DNA of 42,999 bases from Kagunavirus LM08P2, in the sequence record OZ035738.1. One strand, written 5' to 3'. Position numbers and translations under genes: made by a program. The notes under the pieces are model-generated. The model did not search any database. It was not told the origin of the DNA and saw only the letters and a list, made by a program, of their open reading frames with translations. This document shows, piece after piece, positions 8,090-32,092 of this stretch (the stretch's first letter is position 1; each line of letters starts with the position of its first letter).

Positions 8090-8269
8090 ATGGCAGATAA
8101 TTATGTAATCCGCGAAAAGTACACCCACGTTGGTGTTGTTGACGGTCAGGTAATGCCTGTTCGCGGTGTTGTAGAACCGGATGAGCTTGTGGCAACGCAA
8201 CCAGATAACGAAGAAGCGCACAACAACGGCGGTGGTACTAAACGTCGTCGCCGTAAGTCAGAGGAATAA
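8090..8269 (+). CDS. Small hypothetical protein (59 aa) with basic C-terminus
   Basis: Hand-translated ORF below the 60-aa track cutoff; SD AAGGAAAGG upstream of ATG 8090; ends GGGTKRRRRKSEE. Confidence 0.35.
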   Translation: MADNYVIREKYTHVGVVDGQVMPVRGVVEPDELVATQPDNEEAHNNGGGTKRRRRKSEE

Positions 8270-8272
8270 TTT

Positions 8273-8785
8273 ATGCCTCTAATCGTGGAAACGGGTGAAA
8301 TCGTCCCTAATGCTGACAGTTACGTTAGTCTGGCTGACGCCCGCGCGTTAGCGGCTAATTATGGCCTGGAGTTGCCCGCGGATGATACCGCCGCAGAGGT
8401 GGCCTTGCGTAATGGTGCAACGTATGTTGGGTTAGCAGAACCCCAGATGTACGGTCGTCGTGTATCTGCCGAACAGTCACTGGCATATCCTCGCACTGGT
8501 GTAACGTTGAATGGTTTCCCAGTAGCTAACAATGTCATCCCGAAGCAGGTGATTCTTGCGCAGGTAATCGCCGCCGTTACCTATGGCGCGGGTACTGAGG
8601 TGCGGGCTAACTCTGACGGACGTTTGGTACAGACCGAGCGCGTAGAGGCCACAGTAACCGTCACCTACTTCAACAACGGCAACAGCGGTGCCACGACCGC
8701 GATTACCGCTGCGGATGACGCCTTACGCCCGTTACTGTGCGGCGGTCTTAACAATGGCTTCTCGTTTAATGTGCGCCGGGGGTAA
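8273..8785 (+). CDS. Hypothetical head/neck protein
   Basis: 170-aa ORF in head-to-tail joining region; function by position only. Confidence 0.4.
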   Translation: MPLIVETGEIVPNADSYVSLADARALAANYGLELPADDTAAEVALRNGATYVGLAEPQMYGRRVSAEQSLAYPRTGVTLNGFPVANNVIPKQVILAQVIAAVTYGAGTEVRANSDGRLVQTERVEATVTVTYFNNGNSGATTAITAADDALRPLLCGGLNNGFSFNVRRG

Positions 8786-8787
8786 AA

Positions 8788-9402
8788 ATGGCGAAGACTA
8801 AAACAGAGATGTTTACTCTTATCGGTGCAAATCTCCCCGATAATACCACTGGACTTATTACCCCCGCAGCGTTGCGCGAGGTAATGACACAGATGGCTGA
8901 CTCGCCTATCTATGCCACTCCGGGGGTTAAAGAGGTTGAAGTTCTCCGTGCCGCGTCGACAGTAGCACAAGCACCATCCGCAGTGGACACAGCATTGCAA
9001 ATAACTTTCGGTGCTGCCCAGGGAAGCGCGTCTAACCCGGTAATGATTAATGCTGCAGGGCTGGTTACATTCAACGCCGCGGGTAACTACGCCGTTCGCA
9101 TCAAGTTACAGGCGGGGCGTACGGGTGCTAGTGGGACATCAATCCTTTTATCACGCATTCTTCTTAACGGCGCTCAGTACGGCTCACCCGCGGCCACGAA
9201 ACTGGTAAGCGCGGATATTACAATCCCGATTGAATCCCGCGTCGTTATTAACCCCACCGCAGGCCAGACGTTTGCCGTTCAGATTATGCGGGATAGCGCC
9301 GGAAGCAACTACGGTGGCGTATACCCGCAAGCGGCTACTGTAACCGCATGGGGTACAGCACCATCCGCATTACTGGTTATCTCGAGACTGGAGGCAGCGT
9401 AA
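8788..9402 (+). CDS. Hypothetical structural protein
   Basis: 204-aa ORF tightly packed with neighbours. Confidence 0.4.
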   Translation: MAKTKTEMFTLIGANLPDNTTGLITPAALREVMTQMADSPIYATPGVKEVEVLRAASTVAQAPSAVDTALQITFGAAQGSASNPVMINAAGLVTFNAAGNYAVRIKLQAGRTGASGTSILLSRILLNGAQYGSPAATKLVSADITIPIESRVVINPTAGQTFAVQIMRDSAGSNYGGVYPQAATVTAWGTAPSALLVISRLEAA

Positions 9403-9761
9403 TGAGCACCGCTTTCAGTAAACGTATGCAAGGCGTTGGTACACGCCTTCTAACCAAATTCGGTAGCACGGTATCTCTGATTCGCGCCGGCTCGAAAGTG
9501 TGGGATGAAGTTCTCGGCGAGTACGTCTGGTCCGACGATGAAGTGTTGCCGTTGAAAGCTGTTCCGGTTCCGGTAAACGCGGGCCTGGTGAACGGTACGA
9601 CGATTCAGGCTGGCGACATGATTGTTAAAGCCGATTACAGCGTCGTTCCTAAGATGGAAGACAAGGTACAATTCGGCGGCGAGCAATGGTCGGTTGTGGC
9701 TATCGAGAAGAAGATGGTTAACGATGATGTCGTGGCATACTTTATTCAGGTGAGAAAATGA
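9402..9761 (+). CDS. Hypothetical neck protein
   Basis: ATG at 9402 overlaps upstream stop (TAATG); ORF track start 9348 is an upstream extension. Confidence 0.4.
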   Translation: MSTAFSKRMQGVGTRLLTKFGSTVSLIRAGSKVWDEVLGEYVWSDDEVLPLKAVPVPVNAGLVNGTTIQAGDMIVKADYSVVPKMEDKVQFGGEQWSVVAIEKKMVNDDVVAYFIQVRK

Positions 9762-23832: not shown

Positions 23833-23968
23833 ACTCTTCTGATAACTTCTCAAGTACAAACGCCAGTTGTGCGTTAGCGGCATCTCTTTGCTGCCGTAGG
23901 CGTAGAACCTCCTCCTCAAGTTCCTTGATACGTTTTTGCAATGCCGGAATCGGGGCTATGATGTTCAT
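23831..23968 (-). CDS. Small coiled-coil protein (45 aa)
   Basis: Hand-translated MNIIAPIPALQKRIKELEEEVLRLRQQRDAANAQLAFVLEKLSEE; strong SD AAGGAG; ATGA overlap with helicase stop. Confidence 0.4.
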   Translation of the reverse strand: MNIIAPIPALQKRIKELEEEVLRLRQQRDAANAQLAFVLEKLSEE

Positions 23969-25389
23969 TTCTTACTCCTTCTCTTCATATAATTAAGTAG
24001 TTCATCCTGTACAGACCTTTTCTCGTCTGTACGCGCGGCGACAACTTCATCAAGAGTATCTCTGGCTATTATTTGATAAATGAATACAGACCGTTTGTAT
24101 CCAGATTGCATCTGCCTTACCGGGCCTATACGCTCGATAACCTGCAAATAATGTTCCAGGTTCCACCCCTGACTCATAAAGGCCATGTGGTGCCCGCCGT
24201 GTTGTAACGACAGTCCGTGGCCCGCGGAGGCTGGGTGTATCAAGAGCATTGGTATTTCACCCCGGTTCCACGCTTCCATCTGCTTATTACCCTTAGCACC
24301 TTTTGCAAACTCCTGTGCCTGCGGGAATCGCTTAAGGATGCGCTCCAGTTCGTGCCTAAACTGATAGGCCACCAGTAACGGCGCGCCCTGTAACTCCTCA
24401 ACAATTGACTCTAGCGCATCCAGTTTCGTGTCGTGCACTTTCTCCCAGTCTTTGGTTGCTTCACCATCGGGCCCCGACACATATACGGCACCGGATGCAA
24501 TCTGCAAACACTTCGAAGTCTTCGCAGCAGCGTTAGCCGCTTCAACTTCCCCGCTCTCCAGTTCCGCGAATAACTTCTCCTCCATATCGATGTACGCCTG
24601 ACGTGCTTTCTTCGGCAGGTCGATTTCAACCGGTACAATAATCGGCGCTTCACAACCGAACCACTCGGCAGCGTCAATCGTGAGACTGATGTCTTTCATC
24701 TTCTGGTGAATCTCAGTATCTGCGCCAGGGCGCGCATGATATTCGCGCGCCATAGCCGATTTGCCTTTCTGTACCGAGTTAAACCAGCGGTCGGTGAATG
24801 CTGTGTACGAGGAACCCAAGCGCTCGCCCGCGTCGATAAACCAGTTCTGCCCCCACAAATCCTTTAGGCCGTTCGGCGACGGCGTACCAGTCAGGTTGAT
24901 AAAACGCTTAACCTTACCGAAAGCAACCTTGCTAAGAGCCTTTGCGCGCTTGCTTCCACCTGAACGGCTGCGGAACGATTTAAGCTTCGTGCTCTCATCG
25001 GCGACAATAACGGTAAAAGGCCAGTCGTCTTTGCCGTAGTAGTCAATCAGCCACTCGATAACTTCGTAGTTGGTGCACACCACGTTAGCATCCGACTCCA
25101 GCGCCGCGATGCGGCGCTTTTCTGAACCGGTCGCATCGACGACACTCAGGCATGGGAATCGCCATTTCTCTTGTTCTGCGGGCCATGTGCCGGACGCGAC
25201 ACGTAATGGGGCTAGGATTAACACGCGGTCGTCGTCGTTAAGCTGACCATTACGGAACAGTCTGTTTAATGCCCACAGTACGCTGCCAGTCTTCCCGGCA
25301 CCCATGCTCGCCCATATGTTACAGCGATGGTGCCGCAACATGAACGAGGTCATGAGCTTCTGGTACTCGCGCCTTTGAAACTTAGACAT
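23965..25389 (-). CDS. SNF2/DEAD-box family helicase
   Basis: Walker A GAGKTGS and DEST (motif II) in VIVADESTKLKS; track start 25422 is GTG; ATG at 25389 has SD GAGG. Confidence 0.7.
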   Translation of the reverse strand: MSKFQRREYQKLMTSFMLRHHRCNIWASMGAGKTGSVLWALNRLFRNGQLNDDDRVLILAPLRVASGTWPAEQEKWRFPCLSVVDATGSEKRRIAALESDANVVCTNYEVIEWLIDYYGKDDWPFTVIVADESTKLKSFRSRSGGSKRAKALSKVAFGKVKRFINLTGTPSPNGLKDLWGQNWFIDAGERLGSSYTAFTDRWFNSVQKGKSAMAREYHARPGADTEIHQKMKDISLTIDAAEWFGCEAPIIVPVEIDLPKKARQAYIDMEEKLFAELESGEVEAANAAAKTSKCLQIASGAVYVSGPDGEATKDWEKVHDTKLDALESIVEELQGAPLLVAYQFRHELERILKRFPQAQEFAKGAKGNKQMEAWNRGEIPMLLIHPASAGHGLSLQHGGHHMAFMSQGWNLEHYLQVIERIGPVRQMQSGYKRSVFIYQIIARDTLDEVVAARTDEKRSVQDELLNYMKRRSKK

Positions 25390-26065
25390 GATTGGCCTCA
25401 TGAACTGCTTTTGCGAAACCACGCGGGGTAAGGCTGCGTATTGTTTTTGTCCTCACCGATTTACCGCCTAATTTATTGTGTTGGTCGGAGTACCCATCAA
25501 CCACGGCGACACATGATTTAACGGGCATCACAAAACCGTTACCCGCCCAAATACATGTCTTCTTAGGGTACGCGTCCCGCGGTTTTATGTATTCGGGGAA
25601 CATTGGGTGCGTGTCGTCTTCGGGTAAATAGCCGCCGTATTCGTACGGATTGAACGAATAGTCAGGCTTGCGCCATAAAGACGAAAGAACGCTAACCGGG
25701 TTCTCAATCATATAAGGTACGTTGTACTTTTTAGCCAGACGCGCAGCCACTTTGCATGTAATCACGGCCTCTACCTGAAAAGTTGGATTCTTCTTCCGCT
25801 TCGTTTCGAAATGCGCTGCGCCGCTAACAGCTAAATCTGTGCACGGAGGGAACGCAAAAATAATATCCGGCGCAACCTCGAAGTCGAATTTATTGTCAAT
25901 CCACGCGTTTATATAGTGGATGTTCTCGTGTTCAACTTTTGCGCCCAATCGCGCGTAGTCGCCGTGGTCGGCACCGTCGTAGTTGAAACAATAGCAAGTA
26001 TGGCCCGCTTCCGCCCACGGTTGGGCCATGAGGCCCGAACCGTCGAACAATGACCAGATAATCAT
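25382..26065 (-). CDS. DNA (cytosine-5)-methyltransferase, compact
   Basis: 227 aa with C5-MTase motifs in canonical order: FDGSG (motif I), PPC (motif IV catalytic Cys), ENP (motif VI). Confidence 0.6.
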   Translation of the reverse strand: MIIWSLFDGSGLMAQPWAEAGHTCYCFNYDGADHGDYARLGAKVEHENIHYINAWIDNKFDFEVAPDIIFAFPPCTDLAVSGAAHFETKRKKNPTFQVEAVITCKVAARLAKKYNVPYMIENPVSVLSSLWRKPDYSFNPYEYGGYLPEDDTHPMFPEYIKPRDAYPKKTCIWAGNGFVMPVKSCVAVVDGYSDQHNKLGGKSVRTKTIRSLTPRGFAKAVHEANHV

Positions 26066-26253
26066 TTCGCCACCAGAACTAACTCTTTACGCCCGAACGC
26101 CGTAACGTTACCGGTTACGTCTTCGATAACCAGTTTACCGTTCGACTCTACGTACACCGTATCAACGGCAACAGGGCGACGGGTCTTAACATTGAAAATC
26201 ATGTCGCCCGGTACGATGTCACGTGCTGGTTTGCGGTCGTATTCGTGTTTCAT
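26062..26253 (-). CDS. Hypothetical protein (63 aa)
   Basis: ORF with ATGA coupling to MTase gene. Confidence 0.4.
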   Translation of the reverse strand: MKHEYDRKPARDIVPGDMIFNVKTRRPVAVDTVYVESNGKLVIEDVTGNVTAFGRKELVLVAK

Positions 26254-26292
26254 TTCTCAATTCCTTATAGTTAAGGCCCCGAAGGGCCTGTA

Positions 26293-26547
26293 TTAGTTAG
26301 ATAATTCGGCTTGAACTTGCTTAATAAGTTCTCCAGCCGTTGTGAAGTCTACGGACAGCCGTTTAGCTACGTCTTCCGCAAGCACTTTGCGGCCAACCGA
26401 CCCGAAACCCAGGATACGGTTTACTTCCGAAACCTTCATATACCATGAGTAATTAACTGATGCCCCTGTGTACTTACAGATTCGAACAGATGAATCGATT
26501 GAACCCATAATCATGGTGTTTACTGACAGTTGAAGTTCGATAGCCAT
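26293..26547 (-). CDS. Hypothetical protein (84 aa)
   Basis: ORF with SD AAGGA downstream of promoter 26582-26610. Confidence 0.4.
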   Translation of the reverse strand: MAIELQLSVNTMIMGSIDSSVRICKYTGASVNYSWYMKVSEVNRILGFGSVGRKVLAEDVAKRLSVDFTTAGELIKQVQAELSN

Positions 26548-26548
26548 T

Positions 26549-26863
26549 TTATAATTCCTTATATTGTTGGGGTATGTGCTTACTATAATAGTCTGCTATT
26601 AGGGTGTCAATCTGTTTTATCGAACCAACGACAAAAACATTCGCGCCACGTTTACGCATCCGCTCGTGCTCGCGTAACTGGTGTGGGTCTGGCTTCGTGC
26701 TTTCATCTTTCTTAACCTCAACGAACCAGATGATGCCGCCGGGGAGGATTACCAACAGGTCGGGCGCTCCGTTTCGGCCCTCATACACTATCTTACGAAC
26801 GAGGCCCCCCAGGGCCTCGAATCGGTCTTTCGCGTATTTCTGTACGCGGCCCTCTTTAGTCAT
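26549..26863 (-). CDS. VRR-NUC domain nuclease
   Basis: PD-(D/E)XK-like core GAPDLLVILPGGIIWFVEVKK; start uncertain (ATG 26863 or TTG 26878). Confidence 0.55.
   Translation of the reverse strand: MTKEGRVQKYAKDRFEALGGLVRKIVYEGRNGAPDLLVILPGGIIWFVEVKKDESTKPDPHQLREHERMRKRGANVFVVGSIKQIDTLIADYYSKHIPQQYKEL
26582..26610 (-). promoter_or_regulatory. Sigma70-like promoter, family 1 (TTGACA-N17-TATAGT)
   Basis: On minus strand TTGACACCCTAATAGCAGACTATTATAGT; lies inside the 3' end of the VRR-NUC gene. Confidence 0.5.
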
Positions 26864-27094
26864 GGGCGTAGAACCCAAGTAAGGAAAGCCCCTCCTAGAA
26901 CGGCAACACCGACAAACTTAAAGAACAGGCCATAACAGAACATCGTGGCTATTCCCGCCCCGAGTAACAGTGCAAGCATGGTTACTATTGTCCAAAATAC
27001 AAACATTGTCATAATACGCACCCCTCACGTTTCGTGTGCTCAATCCCGCAGCGCGGACAGATTCGACAGTCTTCTTCATAGAACCAGTAGATTT

Positions 27095-27226
27095 TCATTC
27101 CAGCACCCACAGATAAATTGCGATGAACATACCTAATACGGCTACAATCATGCCGTATTGGCCCTCGTGACAGTAGACACCGGCGGCAAATCCCGCCAGT
27201 ACTGCGATAATCAGTTTACTTAGCAT
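27095..27226 (-). CDS. Small membrane protein (43 aa)
   Basis: Hand-translated MLSKLIIAVLAGFAAGVYCHEGQYGMIVAVLGMFIAIYLWVLE; SD GAGGTG; overlaps DNA polymerase stop. Confidence 0.35.
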   Translation of the reverse strand: MLSKLIIAVLAGFAAGVYCHEGQYGMIVAVLGMFIAIYLWVLE

Positions 27227-29489
27227 AACGGTACACCTCTTCCCCAGCCCATGTTAACGGGAACCCTTCGGCCCACTCAGGTAATGAGCATAGCAGGTCA
27301 CCCATCTCTTTAACCGTGTACTCTGGCGTGTCTGGCGTTTCGGCAACACATTCGTCATGTACGTGGAGTACAATTGGGTAGCCCGCCGCCTCGACCGTCA
27401 GGAGTCCGTTAACCAGTAAATCACGGCACAACGCCTGGATGATGTTTTCACACAATTTTCCGCCGTGGGTGTACAAAGTTGTCCACTGGCGGGTGGTCTG
27501 ATTTTCACCCTGATACTTAATGCGGACGTTAGTAGTAACGCGCCCATCCTCGTCAGTCTCTTTAGTGACGCTTAAGCCTATGCCAGGGTAGGACATGATG
27601 CGCCCAGACGGCAGTTCCACGCACAACCACCAACCCGGAACCGGATTACCGTGGTTGTCTTTTTCTTTGGTACGCCAGATGCGGATGGCTCTGTCGCCGT
27701 TAAGGCGTACTCGGGCCCCCGCCCAAAACTCTCGTCCCGGATTTCTGATGGCGGCTATCACCGAATCCTTAAGGTCATTCCAGAATTTCACTGTTTCCGG
27801 ATGGGCTTCCCGCCACATGCGCTTAATGGCGTCACAGGTGCGCCAGACTTCTTTAGGCAGCACATAAGAGGCCCGTTCATCTTTTTTACCAGGCTTTGGC
27901 GGGCGTTTAGCCTCCTGAATTCTGGCCCATTCGTAGCCACGGGCGGTAGCCGCCCAAATGTGGTCGGGGAACGTGCCCCGCATTGTCTCTGTCATTTTAA
28001 AGAGGTCCAGCCCGTAAGTTTTAGCCATAGTCATAAAAGCCCCTACGCCCCCCTCGTAGCCGAGGCCGAGTTCGCAACATTTCCCGACCTGACGTAGGTC
28101 CTTACGGGTGGCTTTTAGTTCTACGGGGTCCATGCCAAACATCTTGCCCGCGGTGGCGCAATAAATATCAATCCCTGCGCGGAAGGTCTCAAGCGCGGAT
28201 GTCTCCCCCGCGGTCCAGGCCAACCCGCGCCCTTCTACGTTTGAGTAGTCGGCAACGAGCAACTTATTACCCTTTTCAGGGATGATGCAACTGCGAACAG
28301 TCGAGGCTGTCAGCTTGGATACGTCGAAACGACGGTGCGCCCGACCCTTTAGCAGCAGATTGATGCCGAACGATAGGGGGTTGAGACGACGGTTCCAGTC
28401 TTCGTCGGACTCCCACGGCTGGCGTACAAGTTTCTTCTCCTCGTTAGTCGGGTCATCATGATAGTACCCGCGCGACAGGTTCTGCGGCTGGAACCCTTTA
28501 CCCGCAAATCGTAAAGTGCGCTTTGCCCCACCGTACTGGATGCAACCGCGCCGGCGGCCGTCTTTGGACCGTCCTAGCAGGAGCGGTTTGTATTTTGTCG
28601 ACGCCGTGGAGGCCGCGCCGAGGCGCATCTCAATGATTGTGCGCGCATCGTCAGGTAAGTCGTCGTCCTCTAGCAAACCTTCGAGCGTTGCTTTCTGTGC
28701 ATTATAGATATTGTAGGCCGGTGCCAGCTCCCGAAGGATTGGCAGGAAGTCTTTACCCGTTAGCTTGCCGCCAAATTTAGCCCTGGCCTCGTTTTTTAGC
28801 TCTTGCTTGTGGCGTTCAACTGCTGCTACCGCCGCCTCAGCAAGAGCCGCATCAACAAAGAAGCCTCGGTCGTTGATTAACTGGTCAAGTTCAAGTACAC
28901 GGTCCTCGAAATCGGAGTTACCCCAACGTGGCAGCTTATGGAAGACTTCACGCATCGCTGTGATGTCGCTCACGGCATACTTGATGAACAGGGCCCACTC
29001 GTCAGGGTGAGTTTCTGCGGTGTAGCGGCGGATTTTGTAGTTCTTCGGCGTCGGTTTAGAGAAACGCTTAATCAGCGCCTTGCCGCGTTTATCTTTTGCA
29101 TTGTCGGCGGATACGCCCAGCACTTCGCACAATGCGTCAAGTGACCCCGGCAGCGCGTGACGAAACGCCCAAATCATCGTATCAATGGTGTTGCTTACGG
29201 GAATATCAAAACCCCAGCAGTTCTTCATGATGAGCCTATCGAAAAGTCCACCGTTATGCCACACCATCTTAATGCGACTGTTTGGCTTCACCAGACGGCG
29301 TAACGCGCGGTGTAAATCTCCCGGCATGTCGCTGCCGTCAGTGCAGTCCCATACCTGAACAGGCTCGTCATCAAAAGCATAGGTGCAGATGAGCACTTCG
29401 GTAGTCGGGTGTTCGGCGTAAGCATAGGAGCCGACTTTCTTTAAATCGGCTTCAGAGAATGTTTCAAAGTCTAAGAACAGGTAACTCAT
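27216..29489 (-). CDS. Family A DNA polymerase with 3'-5' exonuclease domain
   Basis: 757 aa; N-terminal DFETFS (Exo I motif); C-terminal HVHDECV resembling Pol A motif C. Confidence 0.85.
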   Translation of the reverse strand: MSYLFLDFETFSEADLKKVGSYAYAEHPTTEVLICTYAFDDEPVQVWDCTDGSDMPGDLHRALRRLVKPNSRIKMVWHNGGLFDRLIMKNCWGFDIPVSNTIDTMIWAFRHALPGSLDALCEVLGVSADNAKDKRGKALIKRFSKPTPKNYKIRRYTAETHPDEWALFIKYAVSDITAMREVFHKLPRWGNSDFEDRVLELDQLINDRGFFVDAALAEAAVAAVERHKQELKNEARAKFGGKLTGKDFLPILRELAPAYNIYNAQKATLEGLLEDDDLPDDARTIIEMRLGAASTASTKYKPLLLGRSKDGRRRGCIQYGGAKRTLRFAGKGFQPQNLSRGYYHDDPTNEEKKLVRQPWESDEDWNRRLNPLSFGINLLLKGRAHRRFDVSKLTASTVRSCIIPEKGNKLLVADYSNVEGRGLAWTAGETSALETFRAGIDIYCATAGKMFGMDPVELKATRKDLRQVGKCCELGLGYEGGVGAFMTMAKTYGLDLFKMTETMRGTFPDHIWAATARGYEWARIQEAKRPPKPGKKDERASYVLPKEVWRTCDAIKRMWREAHPETVKFWNDLKDSVIAAIRNPGREFWAGARVRLNGDRAIRIWRTKEKDNHGNPVPGWWLCVELPSGRIMSYPGIGLSVTKETDEDGRVTTNVRIKYQGENQTTRQWTTLYTHGGKLCENIIQALCRDLLVNGLLTVEAAGYPIVLHVHDECVAETPDTPEYTVKEMGDLLCSLPEWAEGFPLTWAGEEVYRYAK

Positions 29490-29548: not shown

Positions 29549-30178
29549 TTAGCGGCGGCGACGTTCGCGGCGCGGTGCTTCATCTTCTTCGTCGTCTTCC
29601 AGGTCGTCGGTGCTCGCTACTACACTGGAGCCGCCGAAGCGTTTACCTTCACCCATATACTTGATGCCGAGGATAGTGGCGCACAGGTTTTTCCAATCTT
29701 TGTGCCACCATAACTCTACAGATACGTTTGCGACACATCCGCTGTATACCTGCTCGCCTTCTATTTCCTTTCCGTCGATGTTGAAATCAGGCTCGGTTTG
29801 TTTTTCACCTTTAGCTGATGTCATAATTACCGGTTGGCGGTTGTTAGTAGCACGGAAATACAAACCTTCTTCAAAATCCTCAATCGGATTGTCACGCATT
29901 GCCAGGTCGCGTACGCAGCATTTATCCGCATGGTGGTCTACGCCGTAGTTGGCCTTCATCCATTTTTCAGCAGCAGCTGACCCGATTGCCTCTGTTACAA
30001 CTTCCAGCGCTGTATCGTAAAGCGCATCAATTTGAGGATGGTCAGGCTGCATAAGAACCGTAACCTGATATTTGCCCTTAATCAGTTTACCGGTTTTCTT
30101 GTCCTCAGAATCAGCAGCACGTTCAAATACGTTAACCCAGGCGGTGTTTACTTTACGCAGATTCAGTTTAATACCCAT
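29549..30178 (-). CDS. Single-stranded DNA-binding protein (phage SSB-like, acidic C-tail)
   Basis: 209 aa ending in acidic tail DDLEDDEEDE then basic RRERRRR; position between exonuclease and polymerase. Confidence 0.5.
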   Translation of the reverse strand: MGIKLNLRKVNTAWVNVFERAADSEDKKTGKLIKGKYQVTVLMQPDHPQIDALYDTALEVVTEAIGSAAAEKWMKANYGVDHHADKCCVRDLAMRDNPIEDFEEGLYFRATNNRQPVIMTSAKGEKQTEPDFNIDGKEIEGEQVYSGCVANVSVELWWHKDWKNLCATILGIKYMGEGKRFGGSSVVASTDDLEDDEEDEAPRRERRRR

Positions 30179-30274: not shown

Positions 30275-30522
30275 ACCTTCCAGCCAGTTATTTTCTCAAC
30301 TATCTCGATATATTTGCTAGGCCATTTCATGCTGTTTATGAATCGAATCGCCCGTGTCTTCCACGATTTATCACTCAGGATGGCTTCGATGTCGCGTGTT
30401 CGCATTAGGCATATCGTAAGGCACGCTAAGATAAATGTCGGCATCATTAGCGGCAACATAAGAACCCAGAAAATAGTACACGCTACAAATCCGCCAAGCA
30501 CCCTGAACATTTTACGAATCAT
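30271..30522 (-). CDS. Small membrane protein (83 aa)
   Basis: ATG at 30522 with SD GAGGAGG; two hydrophobic helices; track start 30552 is an upstream extension. Confidence 0.45.
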   Translation of the reverse strand: MIRKMFRVLGGFVACTIFWVLMLPLMMPTFILACLTICLMRTRDIEAILSDKSWKTRAIRFINSMKWPSKYIEIVEKITGWKV

Positions 30523-31823
30523 TCTAAATCCTCCTCTGTCACCTGATTCCACTCAGGCCGTTTATCATCTGCCGTTGCGACACAAGGCGCTCCCGGCTTG
30601 CGTGTGATTAGTTTTTCGAGAATAGGCCACGCATCAGTATTTTTGAACGCTGCTTCTGCCTCTTTCGGAGACACAAGAGACGCCTTAAACAGCATTTTCC
30701 GGTCTATTTCATAAAATTCTGCGGCGTCTATTACCTCCTTCACATCCTTCCACGCACGATTACCCGGGCGGCCTTCTACCAGTTTGTACCCCGGCACTTT
30801 CTTACCGGAATGCAAAGCGGCGGCCATCGCTTTCTCAACCTTGTCGATGTGCTGGCGCAACAACGGCAACTTCTCATACTCAACTACGAGTTGCTCCGGC
30901 GTCAGTTCCAGCGCAAAGTCGTCTTCCAGTTCTTCCGCCCGCACCGCGTTAACTGTCTTTGTACGCGCGGCGCACTGTTCGGAGAACCGACACCACTGAC
31001 AACCATCGACCGACGGCCTGAAGTCCGACGCTTTCAGATTCTTCTTGCCACGGAAATAGGCATCAAGAGCTAACAGTGCACGTTTCTGAGCAAACTTAGC
31101 GAACAGTTCCAGGCCTTCAACCGAGATGTCCCACTCTGACGCGCCACCAGCGTACGGCTGGAAGATTACCAGACGAATAACGGTGATGTTATAGCGTCTC
31201 TTGAGCCTGCGATAAACACCGAGAGCGTAAAGCATAAGCTGCTTGTTTTCTTTCGCTTCGACACGATGCCGCCCAGTTTTCAGGTCTCCGATAATTAGCA
31301 TGTGCTCGTCGGTGTTAGCCAGTTCCTGAACGGCAACAAGGTCAGCGGTTCCGAATGTCTCTAAACCATCCTCCTTACCTTCTTCACTCTCAGCAGGTAC
31401 TTTGTATCCCGGATGCAATACTTCAGTAAGATTGACACGCATCTCGGGCTTGGCGTAAGTCGCTACATCAATAATCGCTTTGCAGTAGTCGGTGTACTTG
31501 CGCACCTGCTCAATCATATCCGCCGTAATCAGTACCGCGCCTTTCACCTGGCTGATTAGTGCCTTAATCGGGCCCTTACCCTCATCCAGAACATAGGCCC
31601 CGACTTCACGCTCTAACGGCAACGCAGTTCCGCGGATATAGGCGTTGAGATGTACCTCAGCTATGGTGTGCATAGCCGTACCTGATACCGCGGCTTTACC
31701 CGACGTGTTAGGGATATCTTTCTCACAGACCAGCGATGCACTGCACGTCAGCCACTTTTTAGCCCCCGACGGCGACAGTAAGGCGTGTACATCGTTATTG
31801 CCGCCACGTTCCTTTAAAATCAT
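30519..31823 (-). CDS. PD-(D/E)XK exonuclease, Cas4/RecB-like with C-terminal Cys cluster
   Basis: N-terminal LSPSGAKKWLTC and C-terminal CQWCRFSEQC (Fe-S-type cysteines); likely start ATG 31823 with SD GGGAGA (track start 31838 is GTG). Confidence 0.65.
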   Translation of the reverse strand: MILKERGGNNDVHALLSPSGAKKWLTCSASLVCEKDIPNTSGKAAVSGTAMHTIAEVHLNAYIRGTALPLEREVGAYVLDEGKGPIKALISQVKGAVLITADMIEQVRKYTDYCKAIIDVATYAKPEMRVNLTEVLHPGYKVPAESEEGKEDGLETFGTADLVAVQELANTDEHMLIIGDLKTGRHRVEAKENKQLMLYALGVYRRLKRRYNITVIRLVIFQPYAGGASEWDISVEGLELFAKFAQKRALLALDAYFRGKKNLKASDFRPSVDGCQWCRFSEQCAARTKTVNAVRAEELEDDFALELTPEQLVVEYEKLPLLRQHIDKVEKAMAAALHSGKKVPGYKLVEGRPGNRAWKDVKEVIDAAEFYEIDRKMLFKASLVSPKEAEAAFKNTDAWPILEKLITRKPGAPCVATADDKRPEWNQVTEEDLE

Positions 31824-32092
31824 GCTCTGTTCTCCCACTGGTCAATTAAATGCCGTGTCTTATGGTCGCAGTGCATGGCCCATCCATACATCGACTCAAA
31901 GACATAAAAGTCTGGCTTGGCGAAAGTTGTGCGCTTAATCTGCGACACGTGGCGGCCTATATCTTTAGGCCGTGGCACTTTGCCTAAGTACGCCATCTCT
32001 TCCATCAGGTGCGCACCGGACGGCGCACGTAACAGCCATAACACCTCTGTGTTGTCCCGCCTGTCTACGGCTCGGTAGAGTTGGTAAATCAT
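31820..32092 (-). CDS. Hypothetical protein
   Basis: Likely start ATG 32092 with SD GAGGG and ATGA coupling (track start 32119 is GTG). Confidence 0.4.
   Translation of the reverse strand: MIYQLYRAVDRRDNTEVLWLLRAPSGAHLMEEMAYLGKVPRPKDIGRHVSQIKRTTFAKPDFYVFESMYGWAMHCDHKTRHLIDQWENRA

Follow-up and report, generated by a model that had tools for sequence, protein, structure and literature searches.

A predicted compact Dcm-like DNA cytosine-C5 methyltransferase in an optional cassette of Kagunavirus LM08P2

Kagunavirus LM08P2 (Guernseyvirinae; sequence record OZ035738.1) carries, within a replication/recombination operon, a gene for a predicted compact Dcm-like DNA cytosine-C5 methyltransferase of 227 amino acids (aa), placed between a 63-aa open reading frame (ORF), orf63, and the gene of an SNF2-type helicase (Table 1). 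The whole stretch analysed, 42,999 nucleotides (nt) long and numbered 1-42999, is referred to below as the window and serves as the reference throughout; all genes noted lie on its minus strand. The methyltransferase gene overlaps both of its neighbours. Its start shares 4 nt (ATGA) with the stop of orf63, which bears out the coupling to small ORFs claimed in an earlier note on this DNA, and its stop shares 8 nt (ATGTCTAA) with the helicase start at ATG 25389. The surrounding 3.4-kb stretch shares 94% identity with Kagunavirus PDP21P8 and with Escherichia phage hz69 and matches 459 phage records, the majority of which are Salmonella and Escherichia Guernseyvirinae; the window is accordingly the ~43-kb genome of a siphophage of Kagunavirus type. 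The protein itself is 100% identical to an hz69 protein already annotated as "DNA cytosine methyltransferase", and since its homologues fall into 7,105 clusters at 90% identity and 1,208 at 50% identity, the gene is real. It belongs to a phage methyltransferase family that has been described before, is widely annotated and includes a functionally tested enzyme, and in this sense the feature is already known.

Read from the sequence, motif I corresponds to F7-D-G-S-G11, motif IV to F72-P-P-C75 and motif VI to E121-N-P123. The length and the three motifs listed in the earlier note were thus recovered, but motifs I to VI span about 117 aa and not the roughly 136 aa it had given. Further downstream lie a motif VIII-like strand (residues 166-173, Y166-P-K168-K169-T170-C-I-W173) and a motif IX/X-like segment (R210-S-L-T-P-R-G-F). 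Only about 35-40 residues separate W173 from R210, the usual place of the target-recognition domain, and the suggestion that little room is left for such a domain holds. In an alignment of 79 diverse family members, conservation reached 100% for E121, P123, Y166 and W173, 99% for C75 and K168, and 97% for R210; the near-invariant positions of the family are Cys75, Glu121-Asn-Pro123, Tyr166, Lys168, Thr170, Trp173, Arg210, Pro214 and Gly216. Variation is greatest in residues 31-70 and 181-205.

Residues 1-226 of the protein matched phrog_757, "DNA methyltransferase", with an E value of 6e-86. Members of this family are nearly all 200-260 aa long, a near-uniformity from which it follows that the small size is a family trait and not a truncation; the clusters at 50% identity were mostly matched end to end. 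By tblastn the family was found in 1,518 phage records, including those of Escherichia (576), Klebsiella (521) and Salmonella (109) phages, as well as BASEL Drexlerviridae, where its annotation reads "Dcm-like C5 cytosine methyltransferase". As a side observation, copies of the gene at 59-76% identity also occur in three records labelled "Campylobacter phage" (MG065688, MG065648 and MG065654; A110b, A144 and C15), whose genomes are of a size usual for coliphage groups; either the hosts may be mislabelled or the samples may have been contaminated.

Sequence searches of the PDB, with the single protein and with the 79-sequence profile, gave nothing significant, PADLOC returned nothing significant for the methyltransferase, and PF00145 recognized only 3 of the 79 family members at E<0.01. 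By comparison of structures, the protein could be placed. The AlphaFold2 model computed on the 79 diverse members (pLDDT 94.7, pTM 0.91) forms a single domain with the fold of a C5-methyltransferase catalytic domain, and its top 35 Foldseek matches were all DNMT3A, DNMT3B or DNMT3C chains (best E ~1e-6). Placement of the methyltransferase came only from this structure comparison and from PHROGs. As judged by predicted fold and family membership, and not by a Pfam-level sequence match, the protein is a compact C5 cytosine methyltransferase, as the earlier note had proposed.

With the canonical PF00145 enzymes M.HhaI, M.HaeIII and E. coli Dcm, the window protein shares motifs I, IV (PC) and VI (EN-) in the same order and, presumably, the chemistry of covalent catalysis. 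In contrast to them, it stays under the Pfam gathering score and has no NCBIfam or PDB sequence match, it carries Y-x-K-(K)-T where motif VIII has QxRxR, and it has no motif X GN(x)VP. Its recognition region, at only ~35-40 residues, is also short; the target-recognition domain of M.HhaI comprises roughly 80 residues or more. The likeness to the DNMT3A and DNMT3B catalytic domains lies in a compact Rossmann-type core that has only a short loop for recognition and lacks a separate small domain, but identity to them is only 12-18%, and the window protein is ~50 residues shorter and has no regulatory domains. The DNMT3 resemblance is probably due to a compactness common to both and not to close ancestry.

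The closest link to function is provided by phage K42, a relative of KarlJaspers (Bas06) at 95.4% identity (Wang et al., bioRxiv 10.1101/2023.08.16.553469). The Dcm-like gene of KarlJaspers (MZ501090) measures 711 bp, and its 236-aa product is 57% identical to the window protein over the full length (E 5e-96). In K42 mutants that escaped the retron Ec86, the 711-bp dcm gene was disrupted; K42 Dcm expressed alone from a plasmid was toxic only when retron Ec86 was present, and its expression led to higher 5-methylcytosine (5mC) levels on the multicopy single-stranded DNA (msDNA) of the retron, as detected by liquid chromatography coupled to mass spectrometry (LC-MS) (10.1101/2023.08.16.553469). 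A C82A/E128A/K175A/K176A quadruple mutant of K42 Dcm was inactive, and conversion of the msDNA CCTGG to AATGG, ACTGG or CATGG led to loss of defence (10.1101/2023.08.16.553469). In the same study, Dcm was encoded by 34 of the 35 Ec86-sensitive phages, and sensitivity to Ec86 followed the presence of Dcm in three phage families (10.1101/2023.08.16.553469). Wang et al. also modelled K42 Dcm, superposed it on DNMT3A and treated the lysine pair K175/K176 as substrate-binding (10.1101/2023.08.16.553469); later retron papers restate their Dcm/Ec86 result. Evidence for 5mC formation and retron triggering thus comes from the literature on this 57%-identical homologue.

By counting along the pairwise alignment, K42 Dcm C82, E128, K175 and K176 correspond to C75, E121, K168 and K169 of the window protein, and all four are conserved. 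Membership in PHROG 757, near-equal length, the catalytic Cys, the ENP Glu, the KK pair, an FNYD variant of motif II and a DNMT3-like predicted fold are common to both proteins. They differ in the loop at residues 181-199, in their gene neighbourhood and in their carriers, a Hanrivervirus (Drexlerviridae) in the one case and a Kagunavirus (Guernseyvirinae) in the other; moreover, experimental data exist for the K42 enzyme, whereas the window member is known from its sequence. KarlJaspers additionally carries a Dam-like gene.

We consider it probable, at roughly 0.78, that the gene encodes an active SAM (S-adenosylmethionine)-dependent DNA cytosine-C5 methyltransferase of a widespread compact, Dcm-like phage family (PHROG 757) with a core resembling the DNMT3 catalytic domain. 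The fold, the conserved catalytic residues, the family membership and the cassette status described below were computed here; from them and from the K42 data we infer that the window protein is active, which site it targets and what role it plays. If it works as C5 methyltransferases do in general, and in line with the residues mutated in K42 Dcm, Cys75 (PPC) would attack C6 of a flipped-out cytosine to give a covalent intermediate, Glu121 (ENP) would protonate N3, and the methyl group would pass from SAM to C5, with Lys168 and Lys169 standing in for the motif VIII arginines. Because there is no separate target-recognition domain, the bases would be read by short loops, namely a family-specific insert at ~139-169 and the variable stretch at ~176-209.

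The enzyme would likely methylate the inner C of CCWGG, the position also deduced for its K42 homologue. Since the defence that the 57%-identical K42 enzyme sets off requires CCTGG in msDNA, CCWGG is probably the site, a reasonable though unproven assignment, and the earlier view that target specificity could not be inferred appears too pessimistic. Progeny DNA would then carry Dcm-type methylation irrespective of the host's dcm status, which would protect it from EcoRII-type enzymes. McrBC has R-5mC specificity, and C5mCWGG methylation would not create McrBC sites. The same activity would come at a cost, as it can set off abortive infection by retron Ec86/Eco1. This reading links Guernseyvirinae methyltransferases to the family that triggers retron Ec86, and Ec86-positive hosts, E. 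coli BL21 among them, may therefore restrict phages that carry the cassette.

Several observations weigh against such an enzyme or such a target. At the level of sequence, PF00145 gave 16.2 bits against a cut-off of 22 and covered residues 3-101 only, and NCBIfam, including the TIGR dcm models, gave no family up to E 0.1; these curated models miss a family present in ~1,500 phage genomes. The canonical QxRxR of motif VIII is absent, with no Arg in residues 166-173, and the motif II column, occupied by Asp in 94% of the family, holds Asn28 here (window 25982-25984). As KarlJaspers Dcm has the same F-N-Y-D, Asn28 is evidently tolerated, and Asp30 may take over SAM ribose binding in FNYD proteins. 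As regards the target, the CCWGG specificity of K42 Dcm was assumed from host Dcm and msDNA mutagenesis and was not mapped, and the host used for the K42 experiment, MG1655, is dcm+, its own Dcm evidently leaving the retron inactive (10.1101/2023.08.16.553469). The observed/expected ratio of CCWGG lies at 0.83-0.99 both in three gene-bearing relatives and in three that lack the gene. BASEL Kagunavirus isolates are described as highly sensitive to those restriction-modification systems that were tried (PMC11990801), and literature searches covering methylation in Kagunavirus, Jerseyvirus and Guernseyvirinae, as well as EcoRII tests of their DNA, turned up no direct methylome data.

The two reservations about K42 bear directly on the best-placed alternative, an active DNA 5mC methyltransferase whose target is not CCWGG but a shorter, relaxed or subfamily-specific site. 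Since host Dcm in MG1655 was silent on the retron, the phage enzyme may differ from it in site or substrate preference. The stretch equivalent to the recognition region, residues 181-205, is among the most variable of the family and differs between the window protein and KarlJaspers Dcm; distant members are without both the 146-162 insert and the LGGKS loop, and a shorter or more relaxed site would suit a minimal recognition module. On the other hand, the single msDNA changes to ACTGG and CATGG each abolish defence against K42, Ec86 sensitivity tracks Dcm across three phage families, and, by the textbook specificity of McrBC, methylation at an R-5mC site would leave the phage open to this enzyme in E. 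coli. We regard a target other than CCWGG as unlikely, yet deserving of serious weight. Slightly more doubtful is the wider proposition that this very large family reads its site with no target-recognition domain at all, through the family-specific motif VII-VIII insert and a variable loop of 30 residues, perhaps as a dimer like that of DNMT3, with a specificity that may differ from host CCWGG or vary between subfamilies; a specificity differing from that of host Dcm would explain why the phage enzyme, and not host Dcm, triggers Ec86.

Site counts carried no information about the target. CCWGG occurs 96 times in the genome against 90-116 expected and is not avoided, unlike many 6-bp palindromes and GATC, and among palindromes containing C none sets the three gene-bearing relatives apart from the other three. 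Because BASEL Kagunaviruses are described as highly sensitive to the systems tried (PMC11990801), a broad anti-restriction role is unlikely; narrow protection against EcoRII-type enzymes fits this sensitivity.

In the course of these counts, GATC was found to be nearly absent from the genome, with 7 sites (positions 317, 10787, 13709, 14434, 15863, 32533 and 37150) against ~152-168 expected (z about -11.8), and the depletion recurs in five other Guernseyvirinae genomes (observed/expected 0.05-0.09). Several palindromes are rarer in this E. coli phage than in its Salmonella relatives: GAATTC (1 vs 7-14), TGGCCA (1 vs 6-9), AGCGCT (4 vs 9-16), TCCGGA (3 vs 11-14) and AGGCCT (3 vs 7-11). These differences may reflect host-specific restriction pressure.

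Comparison with relatives showed that the methyltransferase gene is an optional mobile accessory cassette between two coupled core genes, orf63 and the SNF2 helicase gene. The slot between them holds the compact methyltransferase, an unrelated C5 methyltransferase (K1H 1928-2752) or nothing (f18SE 8096-9708; MA12). The Jerseyviruses MA12 and f18SE have the polymerase, resolvase, orf63 and helicase genes without a methyltransferase, and orf63 of f18SE shares 4 nt with the start of the helicase gene. Helicase orthologues of at least 90% identity occur in 437 phage records, and in the spread of DNA matches many Jerseyviruses cover helicase and orf63 but skip the methyltransferase. In Escherichia phage K1H, ORF29 (274 aa) occupies the same slot and is likewise a short C5 methyltransferase, but it is a canonical PF00145 member (62.8 bits, PPCQPFS); neither BLASTP nor profile comparison detected significant similarity to the window methyltransferase, and in the profile comparison only motif IV aligned, not significantly. 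The segment from helicase to orf63 (23965-26253) is 89-93% identical at the DNA level to the Salmonella phages skrot and horsemountain, both Jerseyviruses, whereas the genes for the polymerase and the single-stranded-DNA-binding protein reach only 66-70%. Given this contrast, the segment appears to move as a mosaic piece, and the sequence comparison points to its recent exchange across genera.

These comparisons bear on the proposal of the earlier note that methyltransferase, VRR-NUC nuclease and SNF2 helicase form one modification/repair or anti-restriction module. The genes are indeed adjacent, overlapping and on one strand, and annotations place the methyltransferase next to a helicase in Dhillonvirus-type phages as well. 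However, MA12 and f18SE retain resolvase, orf63 and helicase without it, K1H has a different methyltransferase in the slot, the Drexlerviridae homologue has other neighbours, K42 Dcm alone suffices for methylation, and the VRR-NUC protein matches a stand-alone nuclease chain of 93 residues (4QBN_A). Optional presence and replacement in K1H mean that methyltransferase, nuclease and helicase do not make up one functional unit, and a joint module is accordingly very improbable. Nor is orf63 a partner of the methyltransferase; it belongs to the core genes of the Guernseyvirinae. A DNMT3L-like role for it was considered and rejected: orf63 is present and helicase-coupled in phages that lack the methyltransferase, and it showed no similarity to the ORF upstream of KarlJaspers dcm. 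The 84-aa ORF, orf84, is accessory, with no blastn match in skrot or horsemountain and no equivalent in the annotation tables of MA12 and f18SE.

Two further alternatives concern the chemistry. Transfer of a group other than methyl, such as carboxymethyl from carboxy-SAM (Cx-SAM) as in phage CmoX, or action on RNA as in DNMT2, is very improbable, as for the K42 homologue LC-MS revealed 5mC in DNA. A relic without catalytic activity or a DNA-binding regulator, to which the sub-threshold scores against curated methyltransferase models and the non-canonical motifs I, II and VIII might point, is the least plausible of all, given that Cys75, Glu121 and Lys168 are near-invariant across the 79 diverse members and that the active K42/KarlJaspers enzyme has the same non-canonical motifs.

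The flanking VRR-NUC and SNF2 helicase genes named in the earlier note were both confirmed, with corrected starts. For the helicase, the mechanical ORF list starts at GTG 25422, while the hz69 homologue is annotated from ATG 25389; the protein matches PF00176 (48.5 bits, cut-off 24.9) and phrog_62 (E 8e-169). The VRR-NUC protein matches the solved chain 4QBN_A, "Nuclease", with E 9e-51 over residues 2-93, and more weakly 4QBO_A (E 5.5e-8) and 4QBL_A, "VRR-NUC" (E 0.58). Its score against Pfam PF08774, 16 bits, lies under the cut-off of 23.8; the 4QBN_A match therefore supplies a close experimental structure for this neighbour even though Pfam misses it. PHROG matches are phrog_93 and phrog_5702, and relatives carry the annotation Holliday-junction resolvase.

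Table 1. Features around the methyltransferase gene, in window coordinates.
Feature	Coordinates	Strand	Remarks
DUF2800 PD-(D/E)XK nuclease	30519-31838	-	
Enc34-type single-stranded-DNA-binding protein	29549-30178	-	
Family A DNA polymerase (PolA)	27216-29489	-	
Three tiny ORFs between polymerase and VRR-NUC			Known from the hz69 annotation
VRR-NUC family nuclease, 104 aa	26549-26863	-	ATG 26863 start, as annotated in the 100%-identical hz69 gene
VRR-NUC, longest ORF	26549-26878	-	TTG 26878 start
Sigma-70-like promoter pattern match (candidate)	26582-26610	-	TTGACA-17-TATAGT, 11/12; inside VRR-NUC 3' end
84-aa ORF (orf84)	26293-26547	-	phrog_11050, E 1e-19
G+C-rich hairpin	26274-26289		AGGCCC-TTCG-GGGCCT (coding strand); in 39-nt gap between orf84 and orf63
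63-aa ORF (orf63)	26062-26253	-	phrog_4879, E 3e-46
Predicted compact Dcm-like DNA cytosine-C5 methyltransferase, 227 aa	25382-26065	-	ATG start
SNF2-type helicase, 474 aa from ATG 25389	23965-25389	-	Start from hz69 annotation and sequence

No T-run follows the hairpin between orf84 and orf63 on the coding strand, and it could be an element of RNA stability or processing rather than a terminator. The promoter candidate inside the VRR-NUC gene may drive orf84, orf63, the methyltransferase gene and the helicase gene, all of which lie downstream of it.

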